A stretch of 64,000 nt of DNA from Chloroflexota bacterium (lineage in GTDB: Bacteria; Chloroflexota; Anaerolineae; Aggregatilineales; UBA3940): contig JAZIGM010000053.1 of the NCBI GenBank assembly GCA_036679085.1, positions 106,869 through 170,868 on the forward strand, in the 5' to 3' direction. The translations under genes were made by a program, and so were the position numbers. A model generated the notes under the pieces. It ran no database searches and was not told the origin of the DNA. It worked only from the letters and a program-made list of their open reading frames with translations. Positions 1 through 51,511 of the stretch are shown piece by piece (position 1 is the first letter of the stretch; each line of letters begins with the position of its first letter).

Positions 1-1037
1 GCGAGCGTCAGCAGCATGAACATGTTGGTGCTCGTAATGCGGAAGGCGTCCTCTGCCGTGCGGTAGCCTCGGCGCGTGGGCCGGTACGGGAAGAACAGGC
101 TCAGCACAGCGATGCTCACGCCGAAGTAGTACAGCACGCTCAGCACAGGCCCCAGCAGCGGGTCGCCTGGCGCTCCCTCCCCGAGGCCGAGGCGGTTGCC
201 CCACACGCCGATCACGCCCAGCAGCGAGCGGCTTGCAGCCCGCAGCGAGCGCAGCACGGCGGCGACCTCGTTCATGGCGATCCGGCTGAGCGCCTCGGCC
301 TCGGCGAGGATGATCGGCGCGGCCACCACCGCACCGACGACCAGCATCAGCGCCAGCCCGCGCCACACGCGGCGAAGCACGCCGGACTGCGTCAGCCCGA
401 GGAACACATAAAAGGCCGGGAACACCAGCCACATCACATAGGCGACGGGGTACGTGTAGAAGGTCAGGCCGAGCGCGACGCCCGCCAGCACGAACCACAG
501 CCAGCCGTCCACGTCGGCGCGCGGGCGATCCCTGAGCGGCAGGAAGTCGTCGTCCACGTCCTCCTGCACGCGGATACCGCGCCGCATCAGCAGCGCCGCC
601 AGCATGTACACAACCGGGAAGGTGACGAGGCGCGTCGCCTCGCGGCTCGTCGATACCCCGTACTGGCTCACCGCAAGCCCCGCCATCGTGGCGAGCGCCA
701 GCCAGCGACTCTGCGTTGACACGCGCACCCACACGTACACAAGCACGGTCAGCAGCACCCCGAACAGCCCCGAGGTCAGCCGCCCGGCGACAAGGTCATC
801 GTCGATGACCAGCATCGCTACGGCGACCGCCCCGGCGAAGAGCGGCTCGTGCCGGTGGTTGGGGTGCTGAAACACGAGCGCAGGCTCCCCGGCGAGCATC
901 GCTCGCGCGTCCTCGGCGTGCCGCAGCTCGGCGAGTGTCGGCACTGCCGACCCCGGCGCAGCCAGCCTCAGCGCCGCGCCGATGAGCAGGATGATCACGA
1001 ACAGCACGATCTCCGTCGTGCGCGCCTGGGCTGCCAT
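1..1037 (-). CDS. ArnT/PMT-like (GT-C, family-39-like) polytopic membrane glycosyltransferase, N-terminal part; continues past the window start
   Basis: Open minus-strand frame from ATG at 1037-1035 to the window edge; absent from the ORF track because there is no stop here. Hand translation MAAQARTTEIVLFVIILLIGAALRLA...HEPLFAGAVAVAMLV...AGRLTSGLFGVLLTVLVYVW is multi-TM. It resembles the N-terminal loop region of the GT39-like ORFs at 26510 and 34835. High GC3. Confidence 0.6.
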   Translation of the reverse strand, partial: MAAQARTTEIVLFVIILLIGAALRLAAPGSAVPTLAELRHAEDARAMLAGEPALVFQHPNHRHEPLFAGAVAVAMLVIDDDLVAGRLTSGLFGVLLTVLVYVWVRVSTQSRWLALATMAGLAVSQYGVSTSREATRLVTFPVVYMLAALLMRRGIRVQEDVDDDFLPLRDRPRADVDGWLWFVLAGVALGLTFYTYPVAYVMWLVFPAFYVFLGLTQSGVLRRVWRGLALMLVVGAVVAAPIILAEAEALSRIAMNEVAAVLRSLRAASRSLLGVIGVWGNRLGLGEGAPGDPLLGPVLSVLYYFGVSIAVLSLFFPYRPTRRGYRTAEDAFRITSTNMFMLLTL

Positions 1038-1069
1038 TGCAGCCTCCGGGGGTGTGGCTTGCTGCGCCA

Positions 1070-1996
1070 TCACGAGCACACTCGCTGGACAGCGGGGTGA
1101 TCAGCGCCCGCGCTGGTCAGGTAGCACTGGAGTGCGTAGACGCCACGCAGATTCTGGGCGAACTCCGGCTCGGTCTGCGTGTTCAACTCGATGATCGCCG
1201 CCGGGATGCCCTGCGCGGCAAGCCAGTTCGACGCATCGCCGGAAACCTCATAATAGTCGAACTGGCCGTAGGTGTAGCCGGTAGCTTCCTCCAGCATTTC
1301 GCCCATCCAGTCAGCGGCAGGGTGGTCGTCACCGCACTCGCCCATAAAAACGCCGCCCGCCGCGCTGTGATAGAACACGACCGCAGCCGGGGGTTCTGTC
1401 AGGAAGAAATCGCGTAGCGCCTGCGACTCCGGCTCGGAGAAGGGCCCTGTACCGGGGTTGACCGTCATATCCTGCACGACCGCCGTCTCCGACCACTCAC
1501 AGCCCCAGTTGCGGTTAAGGTCCACGCCGTTGGCATTAAAGCGGGCCTCGACGCCTGAGCCGCGCACAAGCCCGTCGGGGTTGGCGGCAGGGATGATCAC
1601 GATCTCCACGCCGGGCAGCACGTCCTCCGGGTGATCGCGGAAGTGGTCGATGAGCAGTTCGGCCAGCAGCGCGGAGTTGGCCTCGAACCCGCCGTGAATC
1701 GCGCCGACGAGCACCAGCCGCCGCTCACCCTCACCGAAGCGCCACGCCCAGATGGGCCGCCCTTCCACCGACCGCCCGATGTCGAAGCGGTCGTCTGCCG
1801 GGTCGGGGGTGGCGTCCAGCCCGCTGATCGCCGCCAGGCGCGCGTCGTCTGCGCCGTTGGCGGTGGGCGTGACCCCGTCCGGCATCGGCGGAAGCTGGCC
1901 GGGCGCGAGCGTCGAGGGCAGGCTGACGCGCTCCGCGCCGCAGGCGGCCAGCAGGCAGGCAAGCACGATGAGAATGAGCGTCGTCCAGCGTGACAT
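1070..1996 (-). CDS. M14-family zinc carboxypeptidase, lipoprotein
   Basis: 308-aa ORF with lipoprotein-type signal (LACLLAAC/G). IHGGFE, NANGVDLNRNW and FYHSAAGG motifs are typical of peptidase M14. Confidence 0.8.
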   Translation of the reverse strand: MSRWTTLILIVLACLLAACGAERVSLPSTLAPGQLPPMPDGVTPTANGADDARLAAISGLDATPDPADDRFDIGRSVEGRPIWAWRFGEGERRLVLVGAIHGGFEANSALLAELLIDHFRDHPEDVLPGVEIVIIPAANPDGLVRGSGVEARFNANGVDLNRNWGCEWSETAVVQDMTVNPGTGPFSEPESQALRDFFLTEPPAAVVFYHSAAGGVFMGECGDDHPAADWMGEMLEEATGYTYGQFDYYEVSGDASNWLAAQGIPAAIIELNTQTEPEFAQNLRGVYALQCYLTSAGADHPAVQRVCS

Positions 1997-2226
1997 AGTG
2001 AGAATGATAGCGGGCAGGCGGGAAGCGCGCCAGAAGGGGCAGGGGCGGCGTTTGCAGAAAGCCCTGCCCGTGCCGCTTGCCTCTGCACATTGCCATGAGT
2101 ATGATGAAAGCAGTCTTCTATCGAAATTTTAACCGGGCAATCCGCCGGGCAGCCCGCCGCCCTGCCCGGCACTATACGCCAGACTCTCTGTTAGGCGGCG
2201 TCCGCGATTCATCATGGGAGCCAGGT

Positions 2227-3885
2227 ATGCGCATTCGTCGTGCTGTCATTCTTAGCGCCGTGCTGCTCATCGCGCTGTTCTTAGCAACCATCTCAACGGC
2301 ACAGGCCCAGCAGCGGATCCACATCGTACAGCCGGGGGAAACGCTCTCCGGCATTGCCCTGCGCTACGGCGTGACTGTCCAGCAGATCGCGGCAGTCAAC
2401 AACATTGTCAACCCCTCGCTGATCTTCGTTGGCCAGCGGCTGATCATCCCCGGCCCCGAGCCGCCGCCTCCCGGCGACACGACGACCTACACCGTCCAGC
2501 GTGGAGACACCTTGGGGGGCATCGCACGCCGCTACAACACCACCGTCGCCACGCTGGTGCAGCTCAACGGCCTGACCAACCCCAACCTGATCTTTGTGGG
2601 GCAGGTGCTTGTCGTGCCCGCACCGGCCCAGCCACAGCCCACGGCGACAAGCCCGCAGCAGCCCCAGCCGACCGCCACCTCGGCGCAACCGACGCCCGTC
2701 CCTGAGCGGGTGACGTACACCGTCCAGCGCGGGGACACGCTCTCCCGCATTGCGCTGCGCTACGGCGTCACCGTGCAGGAGCTGGTGATGCTGAACAACA
2801 TCGCTAACCCCAACCTGATCTACCCGGGTCAGGTGCTTATCATCCGGCAGGGGCCTGCGCCGCAGCCGACGGCCACGTCGGTGCCGCCGACGCAAGGCCC
2901 GACCAACACCGCGCCCCCGCCGACAGCGACACAGGTTCCGTCGCGCCTGACGCACACCGTCCAGCGCGGGGAAACGCTCTCCGGTATTGCCCTGCGCTAC
3001 GGCGTGACCGTGCAGGAGCTGGTGCAACTCAACAACATCTCTAACCCCAACCTGATCTACCCCGGTCAGGTGCTCGTCATCCGGCCCGGCCCGCAGCCGA
3101 CCGCCACGGCAGTGCCGCCAACGGCAACCATCGCACCGACCAGCACGAGGGACCCCAACGCGCCGCCGACGGCCTCGCCAACAGCGCTGCCGGGCGGCAT
3201 CCCGACGCCTACGCCCATCGTCCGCCCGACCAGCTCGGCCCCGCTCGGCCCGAACCTGTTTGCCAATCCGGGCTTTGAGGGCAATGCGCGGCAGGTCGGC
3301 GCAACGGGGGTCAACGTGGTCGGCGAGTGGCAGCCCTTCTACTGCGCCGAGCCTTACACCAGCGCGCCCTGCCCGGCGCTGCGCCGGGGTCAGGGCAACC
3401 CCTCCGACCTGCTGATGGGTCGCCCTCGCTTCGATCCGGTGACGGCAGCGAACCGCGTCCACGGCGGCACGTCGGCGCAGTCGTGGGCCTGCCGCTATAT
3501 CACCTGCCGCGCGGGCGTCTTCCAGACGGTCGAGACGCAGCCGGGCAGCCAGTGTGAGGCGGGCGCATACGTGCAGTCGCACAGCTCACACACCTCAGAC
3601 GTGCGATCCGACCTGGCGCTTGGCTCAGACCGCGAGAACTCGGCCTGGCGCATCATCGTGGACCTCAACGGCGGGACGAACGCCTTTGCCCAGGGGAGCA
3701 ACATGCTGTCGAGCCGGACCTTCGGCTACGACGACGGCATCTATGACCAGTTCGCGCTGATCCGCTTCACCTTCACCGCGACGGGGAACCGGACGACCGT
3801 GTTCTTTGAGGACGTGCGGTTGTGGCCGTTCTCCCGCAATGTCAGCTACATCGATGACGCGTACGTGCGCTGCACCACGCCATAG
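2227..3885 (+). CDS. Secreted protein with 4 LysM repeats, Pro/Thr/Gln linkers and a Cys-containing C-terminal CBM-like domain
   Basis: Start moved to ATG 2227 (GGGAG upstream; signal-like [19 protein letters not shown]). Four copies of Y/HxVQxGxTLxxIAxRYxxTVxxLxxxNxxxNPxLIxxGQxLxxP. The C-terminus begins [10 protein letters not shown] and carries 7 Cys. Confidence 0.85.
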
Positions 3886-21983: not shown

Positions 21984-22066
21984 GCCGGAGTGGCGGAATG
22001 GCAGACGCGGCGCACTCAAAATGCGTTGCCCTCGCGGGCGTGTGGGTTCGACTCCCACCTCCGGCA
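21984..22066 (+). tRNA. tRNA-Leu(CAA): tRNA-Leu, anticodon CAA (long variable arm, CCA not encoded)
   Basis: Acceptor GCCGGAG/CTCCGGC+A, anticodon loop CUCAAAA, variable arm TGCCCTCGCGGGCGT, T-arm GTGGG-TTCGACT-CCCAC. Confidence 0.93.
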
Positions 22067-37371: not shown

Positions 37372-37378
37372 CTGACAG

Positions 37379-37767
37379 TGGAGCCGGGGAGAATCGAACT
37401 CCCGTCCAGAAAGTTCGCGCCCTCACGTCTACGAGCGTAGCCGGTTTATTGCATGTTTCGCCCCGCCCCGCGCCAACCGGCAGGCTCGGCTGGGGGCTAG
37501 TCTCCCTTTTGGTCTTAGGTGCTGCCCGGAGACCGGCGAGCACCGCACCAGCGCCTTTATGACGCCCGGAACTCAGCCGACGCTGTCAAACTGAGGCGGA
37601 CGTGACCCCTCGCAAGGGGTCAGCTTGGCTTAGGCTACTTACGCAGCCATCGCCAGAGCAGGTGTCTGCTCGTTGGCATTTATTGTTTTGCACTTTGATC
37701 ACGGAGTCCAGTGCGCTCCGGCTCGCAGTGAGTTTGCATCCCTCCCTGTCGAAGCCATTACGGCCCC
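37379..37767 (-). ncRNA. ssrA: tmRNA (SsrA), tag peptide ANEQTPALAMAA
   Basis: 5' GGGGCCGTAATGGCTTCGACAGGGAGG. 3' GGACGGGAGTTCGATTCTCCCCGGCTCCA with G3-U70 in the acceptor stem. Tag reading frame GCC AAC GAG CAG ACA CCT GCT CTG GCG ATG GCT GCG TAA at 37677-37639. Confidence 0.93.
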
Positions 37768-42803: not shown

Positions 42804-42944
42804 ACACCGAGCGGTGACGTAGTCACTGCGAGGTTAGGTGGGGGGTCAGCGGTGGTCAACACACAGGCCCCCTTATGCGACGACGCGGACGCTTGACAAG
42901 CCTTCCCGACTTGGCAGACCCCGCCGCTGGGGTATACTCGCGGC

Positions 42945-44573
42945 ATGACAGACTCACCCGACCTCGCTCCAGCCGAAAGCCAGCCCGCCAGCCGCGCCCT
43001 CTCCAGCCGGCAGATCGCCCGCGCCGCCGGGCTGGTGATGATCGGTTTTGCCCTCAGCCGCCTGCTGGGCCTCCTCCGCGCCTCGATCCTCGCCGGTGTG
43101 TTCGGCGCGGACCGCGCCTATGAGGCGTTCGTCGTTGCGCTGCAGGTGCCCGATACCATCTTCTTTGTGATCGCGGGCGGGGCTATCGGCTCCGCCTTTA
43201 TCCCGACCTTCACCGACTACCTCGCCGAGGGCCGCGTGAAGGAAGGCTGGCGCATGGCCAGCTCGGTGATCAACCTGCTGATCCTCGGGCTTGTCGTCGT
43301 CGCCGGGCTGACGGCGCTGTTTGCCGGGCCGATTGTGCGCTACGTCATCGCGCCCGGCTTCGACGCGGAGGCGACCGCGCTCACCGTGCGGCTGATGCGC
43401 ATCATGCTCATCTCGCCCATCGTGTTCGGCATCAGCGGGCTGCAGATGGGCGTGCTGAACGCGCACCAGCGCTTCCTGCTGCCCGCGCTCGCCCCGTCGA
43501 TGTACTCCATCGGCATCATCATCGGTGCGGTAGTCATCGCCCCGCTCTTCGACATCGGCATTTTCGGCGCGGCGTGGGGCGTGGTGCTCGGCGCGGTGCT
43601 GCATCTCGGCGTGCAGGTGCCCGGCCTGCTGAAGCTGCGCGCCCCGTACCATCTGCTCATCGACGTGACCGACCCCGGCGTGCGTGAGGTCGCCCGGCTG
43701 ATGGGGCCGCGCGTGCTGGGGCAGGCCATCGTGCAGGTCAACTTCTGGGTGAACAAGGCGCTGGCCTCCGGCATGGTCGAAGGAAGCCTGGCGGCGCTCG
43801 ACCGGGCCTGGTACGTGATGATGCTGCCGCAGGGCCTGATCGCGCAGTCGGTGGCGACGGTCGTCTTCCCGACGTTCGCGGCCCAGGTCGCGGCGGAGGA
43901 CACGGCGGCGCTGCGCCGCACGCTCGGGCAGGTGCTGCGCTCGGTGCTGTTCCTCGCCATCCCGGCGACGGTGGGCCTGATCGTGCTGCGGTTGCCCATC
44001 GTCCGGCTGATCTACGAGCATGGCGATTTCAGTGCGGCGGACAGCGAGGCGGTATCGTGGGCGCTACTGTTCTTCGGGCTGGGGCTGATCGCGCACTCGC
44101 TCGTCGAGATCGTGACGCGGGCCTTCTACGCGATGCATGACACCCGCACGCCGGTGCTTATCGGCGGTGCGGCGATGCTGCTGAACGTCGTGCTGAGCTT
44201 CACGCTGATCCGGTTCATCGGCGACAGCGGATCGCTGGTGCGCGGCCCGTTCGCGGGGCTGGCGCTGGCAAACACCATCGCCACGACGCTGGAGGCGGCG
44301 CTGCTGCTGGCGCTGGTCGGCCCGCGTGTGGGCGGGCTGGAGGGGCAGCGCTTCGCGGCGAGCATGGCGCGTGCAGGCCTCGCCAGCGGGGTGATGGCAC
44401 TCGCGCTGTGGGCGCTGATGCCTGTCAACAATGCGCTGGGGCAGTTCATCGGGCCGCTCGCCGTGATCGGCGCTGGCGCGGCGGTGTTCTGGGGCGCGGC
44501 CTGGCTGTTCGGCAGCGAGGAGGCGCGGCTGTTCACCGGCGCGGTGCTGCGGCGGCTGCGGCCTTCTGCTTGA
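42945..44573 (+). CDS. murJ: Lipid II flippase MurJ (MviN)
   Basis: 542 aa, about 14 TM segments, N-terminal ...GFALSRLLGLLRASILAGVFGA..AYEAFVVALQVPD typical of MurJ. Confidence 0.9.
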   Translation: MTDSPDLAPAESQPASRALSSRQIARAAGLVMIGFALSRLLGLLRASILAGVFGADRAYEAFVVALQVPDTIFFVIAGGAIGSAFIPTFTDYLAEGRVKEGWRMASSVINLLILGLVVVAGLTALFAGPIVRYVIAPGFDAEATALTVRLMRIMLISPIVFGISGLQMGVLNAHQRFLLPALAPSMYSIGIIIGAVVIAPLFDIGIFGAAWGVVLGAVLHLGVQVPGLLKLRAPYHLLIDVTDPGVREVARLMGPRVLGQAIVQVNFWVNKALASGMVEGSLAALDRAWYVMMLPQGLIAQSVATVVFPTFAAQVAAEDTAALRRTLGQVLRSVLFLAIPATVGLIVLRLPIVRLIYEHGDFSAADSEAVSWALLFFGLGLIAHSLVEIVTRAFYAMHDTRTPVLIGGAAMLLNVVLSFTLIRFIGDSGSLVRGPFAGLALANTIATTLEAALLLALVGPRVGGLEGQRFAASMARAGLASGVMALALWALMPVNNALGQFIGPLAVIGAGAAVFWGAAWLFGSEEARLFTGAVLRRLRPSA

Positions 44574-45394: not shown

Positions 45395-46608
45395 GGTATC
45401 CCGTCCTGTTCCTCGTCCACGGTGGCCCGGAGCGGCCCCTTCTCCAGCCGGATGTGCAGGCGGTCGCCGGGGCGAACCTGCGCGGGGTCGTGCAGCACGA
45501 GGCCATCCGGCCCCTGCACGATGGCGTAGCCGCGCGCCAGCGTCTCCATGGGGCTCATCGACTTGAGCGCGCGCTTCAGCCCCGCAAGCTCGCTGCGCCG
45601 CAGCGCAAAGCGGCTCTGCACGGCACGTGTTGCCCGGCTGACCAGCCCGTCAACCTGCTGGCGGGCGTTGTCAATCGCCGCCCTCGGCGATAGGCGGCGC
45701 AGGGCGTACATGGCCTGCTCGTAGGCGCGGCGCTGTTCGGCGGTTCGCAGCGCCGCCGCGTTAAATAGCCGCTGGGATAGGCGTTGCACGTCCGCCCGGA
45801 GATGGTCGGCGGTGATGGGCGTAGCCAGCTCGGCAGCGGCGCTCGGTGTGGGCGCGCGCAGGTCGGCGGCGAAGTCAACCAGGGTGAAGTCGATCTCGTG
45901 CCCCACCCCGGCAATCACCGGGATCCTGCTCGCCGCCACCGCGCGGGCAAGGTCCTCATCGTTGAAGCACCACAGGTCTTCGATAGAGCCGCCACCGCGC
46001 ACCAGCAGGATCACCTCGACATCCGCCTGCGTGTTGAGCGCCTCCAGTGCGCGGATGATCTGCGGCGGTGCGCTCTCCCCCTGCACAGGCGTGGGCGAGA
46101 GCACGACTCGCACCTGGGGTCGCCGCCGCCTGAGCACGTTGAGCACATCCTGCAGCGCGGCAGTCGACGGCGAGGTCACGATGCCGATCACTGCCGGGCT
46201 GACCGGCACGGGGCGCTTGCGCTCCGCGTCGAACAGCCCCTCGGCGGCGAGCTTCTCCTTGAGCCGCTCAAACTCGGCGTGCAGGTCGCCGCGCCCGGCA
46301 GGGCGCAGCCGCCGGCAGTAAAGCTGGTACTGCCCGCGCGGCTCGTAGATGCTGATATACCCCTCGGCGATGACCCGGTCGCCGTGCTTGGGCAGGTCGC
46401 CCCGGTGCGCGAGCAGTTGGCTGCGCCACATCACACACTGGAGCGTCGCATCGGCGTCCTTCAAAGTGAAGTACGCGTGCCCGGACCCCGGAATACGGAA
46501 GTCCGACACCTCCCCCTCGACTTCGGTGTCCTGCAGGCGAGGGTCGCTCTCGAACTGCTCGCGCAGATAGCGCGTCAGTTCGCTAACCGTCCACCTCTGT
46601 GTCTCCAT
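45391..46608 (-). CDS. xseA: Exodeoxyribonuclease VII large subunit
   Basis: 405 aa. N-terminal OB fold (WTVSELTRYLREQFE...V.GEVS.F....SGH.YFTLKD) and central catalytic region (GIVTSPSTAALQD, LLVRGGGSIEDLW). Confidence 0.92.
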   Translation of the reverse strand: METQRWTVSELTRYLREQFESDPRLQDTEVEGEVSDFRIPGSGHAYFTLKDADATLQCVMWRSQLLAHRGDLPKHGDRVIAEGYISIYEPRGQYQLYCRRLRPAGRGDLHAEFERLKEKLAAEGLFDAERKRPVPVSPAVIGIVTSPSTAALQDVLNVLRRRRPQVRVVLSPTPVQGESAPPQIIRALEALNTQADVEVILLVRGGGSIEDLWCFNDEDLARAVAASRIPVIAGVGHEIDFTLVDFAADLRAPTPSAAAELATPITADHLRADVQRLSQRLFNAAALRTAEQRRAYEQAMYALRRLSPRAAIDNARQQVDGLVSRATRAVQSRFALRRSELAGLKRALKSMSPMETLARGYAIVQGPDGLVLHDPAQVRPGDRLHIRLEKGPLRATVDEEQDGIP

Positions 46609-46712
46609 AGCATGTCAAGCTTACCACCGGGTCACAGCCAACACAATCGGAATCGCGGAAGGCGCGGAGGAGAACGGAGGGCACGGAAACTGAAACCGCG
46701 AATGTCACCCGC

Positions 46713-46758
46713 GTAGGGGCGCAGGTAAATGGCTTCGCCATTACTAGCTGCGCCCTAT
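46713..46758. repeat. GTAGGGGCGC...GCGCCCTAT hairpin with nested GTAAATGGCTTCGCCATTAC
   Basis: Variant of the GTAGGGGCGGG family carrying a GCTTCGC-apex inner hairpin. Confidence 0.75.
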
Positions 46759-46820
46759 GGCTGTACACGTAAGCCCATTTGATTGTACAAACTCATCAAT
46801 TGTGATGGCTTCTTTGCCCA

Positions 46821-46927
46821 ACCCCCACCCAACCGAGCGGCGATTGCATCGCCACTCGGTTGACCTCCCCCTTGCAAGGGGGAGGTGACCGCAGGTCGCG
46901 AAGCGACCGGAGGGCGGAGGGGGTTCC
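46821..46927 (+). repeat. ~105-nt composite repeat centred on CCTCCCCCTTGCAAGGGGGAGG (46864-46885)
   Basis: Colinear with 21493-21586. Confidence 0.85.
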
Positions 46928-47082
46928 AGCGGCAGCCACCAGCCAAGAAGCCGTTACGGCGAAATGGCCGGGCCGAAGAGGGTGGGAGCTGCGCCCATAC
47001 TGCCCCCGAACACCCCCTCCGCGTCTTCCACGATTCCGCCTTTGACCAGCAGGACCCCGGCCCCGGCGCTATACTTTCCGCC

Positions 47083-47184
47083 ATGATGAACAACATGATC
47101 GTTCGCACGCATCACCACCATCATGACAATGCCGCCGGGCCCGTGGTCCTGCTGGTGGTTGCCCCCTGCGTGGTGATGCCTTAA
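47083..47184 (+). CDS. his operon leader peptide (33 aa, five consecutive His codons)
   Basis: MMNNMIVRTHHHHHDNAAGPVVLLVVAPCVVMP, with CAT CAC CAC CAT CAT at 47110-47124. Ends 27 nt before the terminator stem and 85 nt before hisG. This is the short in-frame version of track ORF 46885-47184. Confidence 0.7.
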   Translation: MMNNMIVRTHHHHHDNAAGPVVLLVVAPCVVMP

Positions 47185-47210
47185 CGCGAACGAGCACGCA
47201 GCGATTGCAA

Positions 47211-47242
47211 GCCCTCCGGACCACCGGGGGGCTTTTTCGTTT
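47211..47242 (+). terminator. Attenuator terminator upstream of hisG
   Basis: GCCCTCCGG (47211-19), ACCA loop, CCGGGGGGC (47224-32): 9 bp with one G-U, followed by TTTTTCGTTT. Confidence 0.75.
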
Positions 47243-47268
47243 ACCTCAAGCCCGTGGAGCCGTTGACG

Positions 47269-48282
47269 ATGAACCAACCCAGCCAGCAGATCCGCATTGC
47301 GCTGCCGAGCAAAGGCCGCATGGAAGAGGAAACGCTCGACTTCCTGGCCGCCGCCGGTCTGCACGTCAGCAAGACCAACCCGCGCCAGTACAGCGCCTCG
47401 ATCCCGGCGCTACCGGGGGCGCTGGTGCTGTTCCAGCGCACCGCCGACATCCCGAAAAGTGTCGCCGCCGGGGATATGGACCTCGGCGTGGCCGGCTATG
47501 ACAACGTGGTCGAGGCACTGAACGGCGACCTCAACGACGTGGTGATCATCCACGATGCGCTGGGCTACGGCGAGTGCGAGCTGGTCGTGGCCGTGCCGGA
47601 GGAGTGGCACGACGTAACCGACTTCGCCAGCCTCGCAGAGCGAGCGCGCACCCGGGGCCCGCTCCGCGTGGCGACCAAGCACGTCAACTCGGTCGAGCGC
47701 TTCTTCGCGGCGCGGGGCATCGAGCAGGTGCGGATCGTCAGCGCGGAAGGCGCGCTGGAAGCCGCGCCCGCCGTCGGATATGCTGACTTTATCGCCGACA
47801 TCACTTCAACGGGCACAACGCTGCGCGACAACCGCCTGCGCCCGTTGGAGGATGGCACCATCGTGCGCTCGCAGGCCGTACTGATCGGCAACCGGGCGGC
47901 GCTCGCCGGGCGTCCGGAGGTGCTGGAAGCCGCCCGGCAGATCCTTGAGTTCGTCGAGGCGCACCTGCGCGCGCGAGGGCAGTACCTGGTCTTTGCCAAC
48001 ATGCGCGGCGAGACGCACGAGGAGATTGCGCGGCGGGTGTTCGAGCAGCCCGACCTCGGCGGCCTACAGGGCCCGACGATCTCGCCGCTGCTGACCCGCT
48101 CCGGCGAGGGCGGCTGGTGGGCGATCAACTTCGTCGTGCCGCAGAGCCGGCTGTACGCAGCCATCCAGCAGGTGCGCGCGGTGGGCGGCAGCGGCGTCAT
48201 CGCGACCCCCGCCGCCTACATCTTCGAGGAGCACCCGGAGCGCTACCAGCGTCTGCTGGCGGCCCTCGGACGTGAAGCATAG
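47269..48282 (+). CDS. hisG: ATP phosphoribosyltransferase (long form)
   Basis: ATG 47269 with GGAG 9 nt upstream (GTG 47254 is possible). IRIALPSKGRMEEETLDFL, DLGVAGYDNVVE, ADFIADITSTGTTLRDN. Confidence 0.93.
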   Translation: MNQPSQQIRIALPSKGRMEEETLDFLAAAGLHVSKTNPRQYSASIPALPGALVLFQRTADIPKSVAAGDMDLGVAGYDNVVEALNGDLNDVVIIHDALGYGECELVVAVPEEWHDVTDFASLAERARTRGPLRVATKHVNSVERFFAARGIEQVRIVSAEGALEAAPAVGYADFIADITSTGTTLRDNRLRPLEDGTIVRSQAVLIGNRAALAGRPEVLEAARQILEFVEAHLRARGQYLVFANMRGETHEEIARRVFEQPDLGGLQGPTISPLLTRSGEGGWWAINFVVPQSRLYAAIQQVRAVGGSGVIATPAAYIFEEHPERYQRLLAALGREA

Positions 48283-48407: not shown

Positions 48408-49760
48408 ATGGCCGACCAGTTATTCCCCATCTACACACTCGACGAGGCCCGGCACAGCATCCTGGTACGCGCCGCCCCCGATGAGATCGCCGTCACCGAC
48501 AGCCTGCTCGACGGCATCGAGCACATCTTCGGCGAGCGGCTGACGCCGGAGCAGGCCGTGCGCCGCATCGTGGACGACGTGCGCCGGACGGGCGACCTCG
48601 CGCTGAAAGCCTGGACAAAACGCCTCGACGGGGCGGATCTCACCGAGCTGGCCGTCACGCCGGAGGAGATCGCGCGCGGGCTGGAGGCCACCCCGCCCGA
48701 CGTGGTGGACGCCCTGCGCCTCGCCGCCGGGCGCATCGAGGCGTTCTACCGCAAGCAGCCGGTCACGTCCTGGCTGGACGCCTCCGCCGAGGGCACGCTC
48801 GGCCAGCTCATGCGGCCCATCGACCGGGTCGGCGTGTACGTTGCGGGCGGCACCGCGCCGCTGCCCTCCTCCCTGCTGATGAGCGCCATCCCCGCGCAGG
48901 TGGCGGGCGTGGGCGAGATCATCGCCTGCACCCCGCCCGCGCGTGACGGCTCGATCCCGCCCGTGATCCTCGCCGCTGCCCACGTCGTCGGCGTGACGAA
49001 GCTCTATAAGCTCGGCGGGGCGCAGGCCATCGCAGCGATGGCCTATGGCACCGAGAGCGTGCCGCGCGTGGACAAGATCGTCGGGCCGGGCAACCTGTTC
49101 GTCACACTCGCCAAGCGGCAGGTGTTCGGCGCGGTCGGCATCGACGGGCTGCTGGGGCCAACGGAGACGATGATCATCGCCGACGAGTCCGCCGCCCCGG
49201 AGACAGTCGCCGCCGACCTGCTGGCGCAGGCCGAGCACGACGTTCTCGCGCAGGCGATCCTCGTCACGCCCAGCCGGGCGCTCGCCGAGCGGGTCGCGGT
49301 GGAGGTCGCCCGGCAGGCGGAGGCGCTGAGCCGCGCGGACATCATCGCGGAATCGCTGCCGCGTGCGGGCGGCGCGTTGATCGTGCCCGACCTGGAGACG
49401 GCCTTTGAGGTCGCCAACGAGTACGCCGCCGAGCACCTCCAGCTTTCGATTGAGGACCCGTTCGGCTGGCTGGGGCATGTCAGGCACGCCGGGGCGGTGT
49501 TCCTCGGCGAGTCGTCGTTCGAGGTGCTGGGCGACTACGTGGCCGGGCCAAGCCACTCGCTGCCGACGAGCGGCACGGCGCGCTTCTCGTCCGGCATCAA
49601 CCTGCTGGACTTCGTGACGGTGGTCAGCGTGATCGGCCTGCGGCCCGACGCTGCCGCCGAGTTGAGCCGCACCGCTGCTCGCATCGCCCACGCCGAGGGG
49701 CTGACCGGGCACGCCGCCGCCGCCGAGGCGCGGATCAGTGGAGGCAGCCGTGAGAACTGA
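48408..49760 (+). CDS. hisD: Histidinol dehydrogenase
   Basis: 450 aa behind GGAGG. ...[27 protein letters not shown]..., QAEHD, GDY.AGPSH.LPT. Confidence 0.95.
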
Positions 49761-50871
49761 CCCAACCACCCAGATCGACTCGCTCATCCGGCCCGACATC
49801 CGGCAGATGGAGCCCTACACGCCCATCGTGCCGTTCGAGGTGCTGAGCGAGCAACTTGGCCGCGATGCCACCGACCTCGTCAAGCTGGACGCCAACGAGA
49901 ACCCGTACGGCCCCTCGCCGCGCGCGCTCAATGCGCTGGCCGCACTGCGCGACGCCGTGCCCATCTACCCCGACCCGGAGAGCCGGGCGCTGCGGGCGGC
50001 GCTCGCGGAGTACGCCGGTGTGGGGCCAGAGCACATCCTCGCGGGCGCAGGCGCGGACGAACTGATCGACCTGATCATGCGGCTGGTCATCACGCCGGGT
50101 GATGCCATCGTCAACTGCCCGCCAACATTCGGCATGTACAGCTTCGACGGGGCGCTGAATGGCGCGCGCGTCGTCGAGGTTCCACGCCGGGCGGACTTCT
50201 CGCTTGATGTGGAGGCAGTCGAGCGGGCGGCGCTGGAGAGCGGTGCGAAGCTGCTCTTCCTGTGCTCGCCCAACAACCCGGATGGCTCGCTCATCCCGCC
50301 CGACGTGCTCGACCGGCTGCTGCACCTGCCGCTTATCGTCGTGCTCGATGAGGCATATATTGAGTTCGCCGGGGTCGAGTCGGCGGCGAGCCGCGTGCCC
50401 GCCACACCCAACCTCGTCGTGCTGCGGACGTTCAGCAAGTGGGCGGGGCTGGCCGGGCTGCGCGTGGGCTACGGTGTGTTCCCGCTGGCGCTGATGGCGC
50501 ACCTGTGGAAGATCAAGCAGCCGTACAACGTGAACGTCGCCGCCGATGCCGCCGCCCGCGCCTCGCTGGCCGACCTGCCATACTTGCGCGCCAACGTCGA
50601 GCGCATCATCGCCGAGCGCGAGCGGCTGCTCGCCGCCCTGCGCAGCGTCACGTACCTGGAGCCCTACCCCAGCCGCGCCAACTTCGTGCTGTGCCGTGTC
50701 AGCGGCCTGAGCGCCGCCGCGCTGAAACAGCGCCTCGCGGCGGACTACGGCATCCTGATCCGCTACTTCGACAAGCCCGGCCTGCGCGACCACGTGCGCC
50801 TGTCCGTCGGCACGCCGCAGCAAACGGACCGACTGCTCGCCGCGCTCAGGGAGATCGAGGCGGGGGTGTAG
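49750..50871 (+). CDS. hisC: Histidinol-phosphate aminotransferase
   Basis: GTG 49750 has GGAGG 5 nt upstream (track start is GTG 49738). [33 protein letters not shown] (PLP lysine). Confidence 0.93.
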
Positions 50872-50914: not shown

Positions 50915-51511
50915 ATGACCAACCGCCGCGCGACCATCACGCGCCAGACCAACGAGACGAACATCACGCTTACCCTCGACCTCGACGGCACGGGCCAGGC
51001 CGAGATCAGCACCGGCGTGGGCTTCTTCGACCACATGCTGCACCATGTCGCCGTGCACGGCCTGTTCGACCTGATCGTCAAGGCAGAGGGTGACCTTCAC
51101 ATTGACGCCCACCATACCATCGAGGATGTCGCCATCGTGCTGGGGCAGGCGCTCGACCAAGCGCTCGGCGAGCGGCGCGGCATCGTCCGCGTCGGCGAGG
51201 CGACCGTGCCGATGGACGAGGCGCTCGCGCAGGTCGTCGTAGACGTAAGCGGGCGGCCCTACGCCGTGTTCGGTGGTGAGTTCCGCGCGCCCATGCTGGG
51301 GCAGATGCCGTCCTCGCTCGTCGAGCACGTCTTTGAGTCCATCGCCATGAACGCCAAACTGAGCCTGCACGCGCGGGTCCTGTACGGGCGCGACGACCAT
51401 CACAAGGCCGAGGCGCTGTTCAAGGCGCTGGGGCGCGCGCTCGACGCAGCCACCCGTCTCGACGAGCGGCGGGGCGGCGTGCCGAGCACCAAAGGCACCC
51501 TGACCGGGTGA
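50915..51511 (+). CDS. hisB: Imidazoleglycerol-phosphate dehydratase (monofunctional, no phosphatase domain)
   Basis: 198 aa: [48 protein letters not shown]. Confidence 0.95.

Follow-up and report, generated by a model that had tools for sequence, protein, structure and literature searches.

A candidate leaderless histidine leader-peptide attenuator upstream of hisGDCB in Anaerolineae

Attenuation as a concept goes back about fifty years, and Actinobacteria already provide examples of leaderless leader peptides; Neshat et al. are reported to have described such peptides for trp, ilvB, and leuA of Corynebacterium glutamicum in 2014. The hisL leader of Escherichia coli has a 5' UTR and a Shine-Dalgarno sequence and encodes 16 amino acids with seven consecutive His residues, and the his leader of Salmonella forms three successive hairpins. 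Histidine T-box leaders take the charging of His-tRNA as the signal, by direct binding of the tRNA, and use a terminator/antiterminator pair as the output. In mycobacteria, the sensing ORF is a leaderless short ORF with which the transcript begins, and its run of cognate Cys codons reports how much of that amino acid is available; these polycysteine elements are described as acting on translation (bioRxiv 10.1101/834739). Candidate His leader-peptide attenuators have been proposed for the Bacillus cereus group, Peptostreptococcaceae, and Erysipelotrichales (Ashniev et al. 2022, PMC9413887); these are lineage-specific, Rfam-negative elements with terminator/antiterminator hairpins that were found by comparative genomics, and hisDCB of C. 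glutamicum is assigned a T-box and not a leader peptide. The remark in the original prediction that Firmicutes use T-boxes for this task thus holds in that T-boxes control his genes there, but has to make room for the His leader-peptide candidates that the same text places in some Firmicutes. A literature search that covered few subscription journals, so that an earlier description is possible, returned no leader-peptide attenuator for His or another amino acid from Chloroflexi or Anaerolineae, in agreement with the original prediction, which had known of none in Chloroflexota.

The locus analyzed here lies immediately upstream of hisG in a 64-kb stretch of Chloroflexota DNA, which as a whole is referred to as the window. 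As in hisL (Rfam RF00514), a short ORF with a His run stands directly before hisG and is followed by a GC-rich intrinsic terminator; the His codons supply one side of a helix, and a segment downstream of them is able to base-pair with the upper 5' arm and the loop of the terminator. Three successive hairpins, as in the Salmonella his leader, are also present in most relatives, and the E. coli hisL control behaved in the same manner in folding tests. Unlike hisL, the element shows no detectable homology to that leader, its ORF has neither a 5' UTR nor a Shine-Dalgarno sequence, and the peptides of the family are 16 to 34 amino acids long, often with alternating H-x-H-x-HHH. The Rfam His_leader model, which scored E. 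coli at 131.6 bits as a positive control, gave the window 16.8 bits (E = 6) against a threshold of 49 and found no match in 18 relatives, placing the element outside that Rfam family as an analogue of enterobacterial hisL. From the Firmicutes candidates the element is set apart by phylum and, going by their description, by sequence family; the accessible part of PMC9413887 mentions no leaderless design. It differs from the mycobacterial elements in its amino acid, His and not Cys, and from the leaderless leaders of C. glutamicum in responding, if the prediction is right, to His rather than to Trp or a branched-chain amino acid. It would share signal and output with histidine T-box leaders, with sensing predicted to be by a translating ribosome; the T-box model had no match within 46500-47600 at E values up to 10, nor in the whole window or the relatives at the gathering threshold.

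The features of the locus and of the operon downstream of it, in window coordinates, are the following:

47042..47047, + strand: -35-like hexamer TTGACC, 22 nt from the -10 box
47070..47075, + strand: -10 hexamer TATACT, 7 nt upstream of the leader ATG
47083..47184, + strand: 33-codon leader ORF and its stop codon (47182-84), MMNNMIVRTHHHHHDNAAGPVVLLVVAPCVVMP*
47099..47120, + strand: region 1, 5' strand of a long helix containing the His codons (anti-antiterminator), from the MFE fold and inverted repeats I7 and I8
47110..47124, + strand: five consecutive His codons, CATCACCACCATCAT, the proposed sensor and candidate ribosome-stall site
47144..47163, + strand: candidate 5' strand of the antiterminator, UGGUCCUGCUGGUGGUUGCC, with a GGUGGU box for which the His codons are an alternative partner, suggested by the masked nascent fold and repeats I4 and I10
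47168..47193, + strand: region 2b, 3' strand of the His-codon helix, GCGUGGUGAUGCC...GCGAACG, spanning the leader stop, from the fold and repeats
47205..47223, + strand: candidate 3' strand of the antiterminator, overlapping the terminator 5' arm and loop, from nascent-RNA folds
47209..47242, + strand: intrinsic terminator, with a stem-loop at 47209-47234 (AAGCCCUCCGG-ACCA-CCGGGGGGCUU) and then a U-tract, TTTTTCGTTT, to 47242
47256..47259, + strand: Shine-Dalgarno sequence GGAG of hisG, 9 nt before the hisG ATG
47269..48282, + strand: hisG, long-form ATP phosphoribosyltransferase (Pfam HisG, 9e-41; HisG_C, 1.4e-11)
48408-49760, + strand: hisD (Pfam Histidinol_dh)
49738-50871, + strand: hisC-type class I/II aminotransferase gene (Pfam Aminotran_1_2)
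50915-51511, + strand: hisB (Pfam IGPD)

Direct reading of the sequence confirmed the ORF, His run, TATACT box, and distance to hisG of the original prediction together with their coordinates. Clustered His codons thus stand upstream of hisGDCB, with an intrinsic terminator between the leader and hisG, as expected of an attenuator. Upstream of the element, xseA lies on the opposite strand, and the xseA-hisG intergenic region measures 660 bp. This region also contains two hairpins back to back, at 46830-46862 (15-nt arms, 93% complementary) and 46863-46886 (12-nt arms, ACCTCCCCCTTG/CAAGGGGGAGGT, 100% complementary), both without a U-tract, and an 11-nt perfect inverted repeat at 46914-24 and 47012-22. 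Above threshold, Rfam identified only a tmRNA gene (37376-37767, - strand, 162 bits) and a tRNA gene (21984-22066, + strand) in the window. An identical HisG protein is encoded on biogas-fermenter metagenome contigs and in the metagenome-assembled genome GCA_012516245.1.

Counting both strands of the 64-kb window, a run of five CAY codons occurs once, where 0.02 was expected from shuffling. A covariance model, R1, was built from 38 relatives with the window left out. It matched positions 47086-47243 at 70.4 bits (E = 1.1e-17), with the runner-up in the window at 18 bits, and the element was on this basis assigned to the Anaerolineae his leader family, in which it has one of the more divergent peptides. 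R1 also scored E. coli hisL (L064, 297-449) at 28.8 bits, with a rough E of 2e-6; this most likely reflects generic features common to both, namely a CAY run and a terminator of the GCCCCCGG type, and not homology. A Pfam search of the leader ORF returned no family. A 99-codon ORF at 46885-47184, in frame with the leader, was rejected as a gene, as it is Pfam negative and its frame is broken by a 5-nt length difference in sister assemblies; minus-strand ORFs across the leader region, likewise Pfam negative, were also rejected.

To identify relatives, a HisG scan with one genome per species was performed, which yielded 59 loci with 46 to 75% HisG identity, 56 of which include upstream sequence. 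Nearly all are labeled Chloroflexota (Anaerolineae, Aggregatilineales, Thermoflexus, and others), and one, L051, is labeled Candidatus Brocadiia. A His-rich leader ORF was present upstream of hisG in 55 of the 56 related Anaerolineae loci, and the full promoter-ATG-leader arrangement in 53. The conservation of a His-codon ORF and terminator upstream of hisG, proposed as a check when the element was first noticed, was thus clearly found. The only locus without a leader, L058, has the most distant HisG (46% identity), while L044 retains a leader ORF with five His codons and lacks the strict promoter pattern. In L038, the full promoter, leader, and terminator are located 1.9 kb upstream of hisG. 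Within 933-3000 of this locus, from Aggregatilineales, the element occupies 933-1103 (MIKQCVHHHSHHHCF...), and the gap of approximately 1.9 kb to hisG holds a reverse-transcriptase ORF of the group II intron type with a YADD motif at 1512-2468; a group II intron has probably inserted into the hisG 5' UTR.

The leader ORFs of the relatives span 16 to 34 codons with 4 to 8 His codons, typically arranged as HAHAHHH or HHHHH, and His makes up 20.6% of residues. Length and C-terminal sequence vary freely, such that at the peptide level only the His codons are kept. The CGGUCCGGUGGUG nucleotides are conserved and yet are read in one frame in 20 loci, a second in 12, and the third in 1, and lie past the stop codon in 3, which identifies the constraint downstream of the His run as one on RNA and not on peptide.

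In 53 of the 56 hisG loci, a -35 hexamer of TTGACA, or one base off it, precedes the -10 hexamer by a 17-nt spacer; the latter is TATACT in 49 of these 53, TATATT in 3, and TACACT in 1, and lies 7 nt from the ATG in 48 and 8 to 9 nt in the remaining 5. Transcription is predicted to start at or beside the A of the leader ATG, which would give an mRNA without a 5' leader; the 7 nt between the -10 box and the ATG leave no space for a Shine-Dalgarno sequence. The suggestion that the leader mRNA may be leaderless, made originally from the window alone, is strongly supported by the near-invariant TATACT-N7-ATG and the canonical -35 hexamer 17 nt upstream in relatives; the window itself has the -10 box about 7 nt before the start codon and no Shine-Dalgarno sequence for the leader ORF, the sequence features of a leaderless mRNA. 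For four Chloroflexi genomes, the predicted share of leaderless genes is about 5% (PMC3160421). In the window, TTGGCA-16 nt-TATACT-6 nt-ATG (42910-42947) leads into murJ (42945-44573), a further candidate for a leaderless transcript.

The window copy departs from this pattern, as the 22 nt between its -35-like and -10 hexamers are too long for a standard sigma-70 promoter. A promoter scan of the window copy returned no canonical promoter, which is attributable to the altered spacer. The four sister assemblies L060-L063, which are from the same organism and have leaders identical to that of the window, carry TTGACA-17 nt-TATACT. The spacers differ as TTGAC[CAGCAGGA]CCCCGG in the window and TTGAC[ATC]CCCCGG in L060-L063, a gain of 5 nt in the window. 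The window-specific spacer sequence is part of a 24-nt, 92% inverted repeat between 47045-47068 and 47133-47156 of the leader region, and the gain looks like a quasipalindrome template-switch mutation that shifted the -35 hexamer out of register. With the -35 hexamer displaced to 22 nt, the window copy may be poorly transcribed and may represent a promoter-down variant.

In the window, the terminator stem has 11 pairs, 8 of them G-C, with an ACCA loop, and a consensus scan found it to be the sole terminator-like site on the strand; the U-tract ends 27 nt before the hisG ATG. A terminator with a U-tract was present in all 54 elements analyzed (53 relatives and the window), with energies of -13 to -27 kcal/mol, beginning 17 to 65 nt past the leader stop and ending 21 to 98 nt upstream of hisG, without overlapping the hisG Shine-Dalgarno sequence. 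Across 39 sequences of the family, 99.1% of the terminator positions were paired, compared with 42 to 63% in slid controls; compensatory changes were observed in 5 of the 11 pairs, and 0 of 500 shuffles matched any of these measures.

The region from 47076 to 47268 folds at -76.8 kcal/mol (z = -2.39), with 47099-47120 paired with 47168-47193 and the terminator formed. A conserved GGUGGUG box is complementary to the His codons and also to the terminator 5' arm. The helix between the His codons and GGUGGUG...GUGCGUGCC was 79% paired across the family, against 23 to 48% when slid, and 3 of 500 shuffles reached 79%; against dinucleotide shuffles, its energy had a mean z of -1.25 in the family and a z of -0.9 in the window. 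The regulatory codons can thus sequester the antiterminator strand, as in the 1:2 helix of attenuators, with modest energy support. A small third hairpin around the stop codon was found in 49 of the 54 elements and is weak in the window.

The candidate antiterminator consists of the segment after the His run that ends in CCGGUGGUG, together with the 5' arm, the loop, and part of the 3' arm of the terminator. Across the family it was 82.9% paired, compared with 37 to 58% when slid. Its covariation was not significant (82.4% paired in shuffles, with 63 of 500 equaling the native value), and the complementarity accordingly reflects conserved sequence and not covariation. The duplex energy had a family mean z of -1.4 against dinucleotide shuffles, and at 47 of the 54 loci the own middle region paired with the terminator better than foreign ones did; in the window, the energy was at chance (z = 0.0 against shuffles and +0.1 against foreign middle regions). 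The mutually exclusive complementarities pointed out originally do exist, namely, 47109-18 with 47170-79 (10 nt, 100%), 47140-49 with 47218-27 (90%), and GCCCCCTG with CGGGGGGC, but are not above chance in the window. Support for the alternative pairings comes from the relatives and not from the window alone.

To examine the switch itself, equilibrium folding with ribosome masks was performed; the terminator was dominant in every state at most loci, with a value of 0.78 throughout in the window. As the validated hisL of E. coli gave the same outcome (0.93 to 0.97 in all states), equilibrium folding discriminates nothing and was dropped as a test. Nascent-RNA folds were computed instead, in which the RNA was cut directly before the terminator 3' arm and the pairing of the 5' arm with upstream sequence was measured:

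Untranslated RNA: family mean 0.41, window 0.24
His codons masked: family mean 0.63-0.66, window 0.62
Ribosome at the stop codon: family mean 0.40, window 0.23

The rise from the free to the stalled state was 0.25 for native sequences, compared with 0.05 after dinucleotide shuffling of the middle region. It exceeded the shuffle mean at 49 of the 54 loci, and in the window 1 of 30 shuffles reached the native shift. A Wilcoxon test gave P = 8.5e-10 for the shift, a value that overstates significance because the loci are related to one another. In the masked fold of the window, 47144-47163 paired with 47205-47223 and 47166-72 with 47196-202. In these models, then, the regulatory codons keep a partner of the terminator 5' arm occupied and set it free once they are covered, which is the defining logic of attenuation.

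A further search was made without his genes in the query, using the pattern TTGACA-N17-TATACT-N7-ATG-N(9-39)-(CAY)4 against 241 million metagenome records. Of 13 matches, eight were leaders of the Anaerolineae type followed by hisG, with hisD also visible in six of them, and one ended at a contig edge. The other four (L065, L068, L069, and L072) share a leader of a second type, MQITFSFHHHHIQAHTLLLD*, that comes with a terminator of its own; in L068 and L069 (two of four checked), the next genes are hisH, hisA, and hisF. All 10 matches with identified downstream genes therefore precede histidine genes, either hisG or hisH-hisA-hisF, and nothing else. The second leader type occurs on lower-GC metagenome contigs and is divergent from an EPSP synthase gene (e.g., L069, 5271-5420).

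The element is best explained as an attenuator through which a translating ribosome controls transcription of the hisGDCB operon, a prediction that we hold with a probability of roughly 80%. Computation showed which parts are present, the order in which they stand, how far they are conserved, their link to histidine genes, and covariation in the terminator, and the original attenuator reading gains from this in that the His ORF and terminator are conserved in relatives and bound to histidine genes. The remaining explanations have to account for the same data. An ordinary terminator and an accidental ORF could have met by chance in a long intergenic region, as the chance-level alternative pairings of the window and its modest fold z (-2.39) would allow; conservation at 55 of 56 loci, the 0.02 (CAY)5 runs expected, the 70-bit match to R1, and the his-specific outcome of the agnostic scan stand against it, and the conservation data effectively refute this explanation, which has a negligible probability. 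The ORF could also encode a functional His-rich small protein, such as a metal-binding peptide or its precursor, that has its own promoter and terminator and merely lies beside hisG. His-rich peptides can bind metals, and the ORF does have a strong conserved promoter and a terminator of its own, but its C-terminal part varies in length (16 to 34 amino acids), frame, and stop while the nucleotides stay conserved, no Pfam family matches it, and the element adjoins histidine-synthesis genes of two operon types, all of which make a small protein very unlikely.

Two explanations retain the regulatory role and change the mechanism. In one, a premature terminator is run by a factor other than the ribosome (a His- or tRNA-binding RNA such as a riboswitch or a T-box, or an RNA-binding protein), and the His codons are a by-product of pairing. 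Since the conserved GGUGGUG helix uses the CAY repeats as one of its strands, RNA pairing alone could select for them, and his genes of Firmicutes and Actinobacteria are under T-box control (PMC9413887). Rfam scans, however, gave no family above threshold, with no T-box or riboswitch match in the region at a permissive E value or in 18 relatives at the gathering threshold; the RNA is short, with no conserved complex fold besides the hairpins, and the CAY run invariably shares its frame with the ATG at the predicted start, uninterrupted by any stop codon, so that such a factor is improbable. In the other, the leader senses His-tRNA as proposed, and the output is Rho, RNA stability, or the translation of hisG. 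The attenuator model is at its weakest in the antiterminator, and translational attenuation is described for the leaderless short ORFs of mycobacteria (bioRxiv 10.1101/834739); set against this is a canonical terminator with a U-tract that is universally conserved, covaries, and lies 21 to 98 nt upstream of hisG, clear of the Shine-Dalgarno sequence, and a different output is unlikely.

Under the preferred reading, transcription attenuation by a translating ribosome, the element most likely turns the operon on under histidine shortage, and we infer where transcription starts, that the leader is translated, which antiterminator pairing forms, and how the operon responds to histidine, as follows. 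Transcription would begin at or beside the A of the leader ATG, and a ribosome would load on the 5'-terminal AUG and translate the 33 codons. With His-tRNA plentiful, it would reach the stop at 47182, the hairpin at 47209-47234 and the U-tract would form, and transcription would terminate before hisG. Termination would also be expected with the leader untranslated, as 47099-47120 would pair with 47168-47193 or with 47146-47159 and tie up the competitors of the terminator. With His-tRNA scarce, the ribosome would stall at 47110-47124, cover the His-codon segment, and free approximately 47144-47163, which could then pair with the emerging 47205-47223; no terminator would form, polymerase would read into hisG, and hisG would be translated from its own Shine-Dalgarno sequence.

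The family appears to be a previously uncatalogued, class-wide set in Anaerolineae, whereas the mechanism itself is familiar; given the age of the concept and the precedents in Actinobacteria, a specialist would be only moderately surprised. We consider it reasonably probable that this is a class-wide leaderless His attenuator of Chloroflexota, the first such family described from the phylum, in which the near-invariant distance from the -10 box to the AUG obligatorily couples initiation, ribosome loading, and attenuation. Since neither gene callers nor Rfam pick up the element, it could become a new RNA family with which to annotate his regulation in hundreds of metagenome-assembled genomes. 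Anaerolineae are abundant in digesters and sediments and mostly uncultured. If the proposal is true, the first ribosome must load on the 5'-terminal AUG once it leaves RNA polymerase, and the element would offer a natural Shine-Dalgarno-free system in which to test, beyond the model phyla, how polymerase and ribosome are coupled and how leaderless initiation works. Leader-peptide attenuation requires a ribosome close behind RNA polymerase, and its class-wide conservation would therefore imply that Anaerolineae couple transcription and translation, while the strict leaderless design would imply that this lineage translates efficiently from a 5'-terminal AUG.
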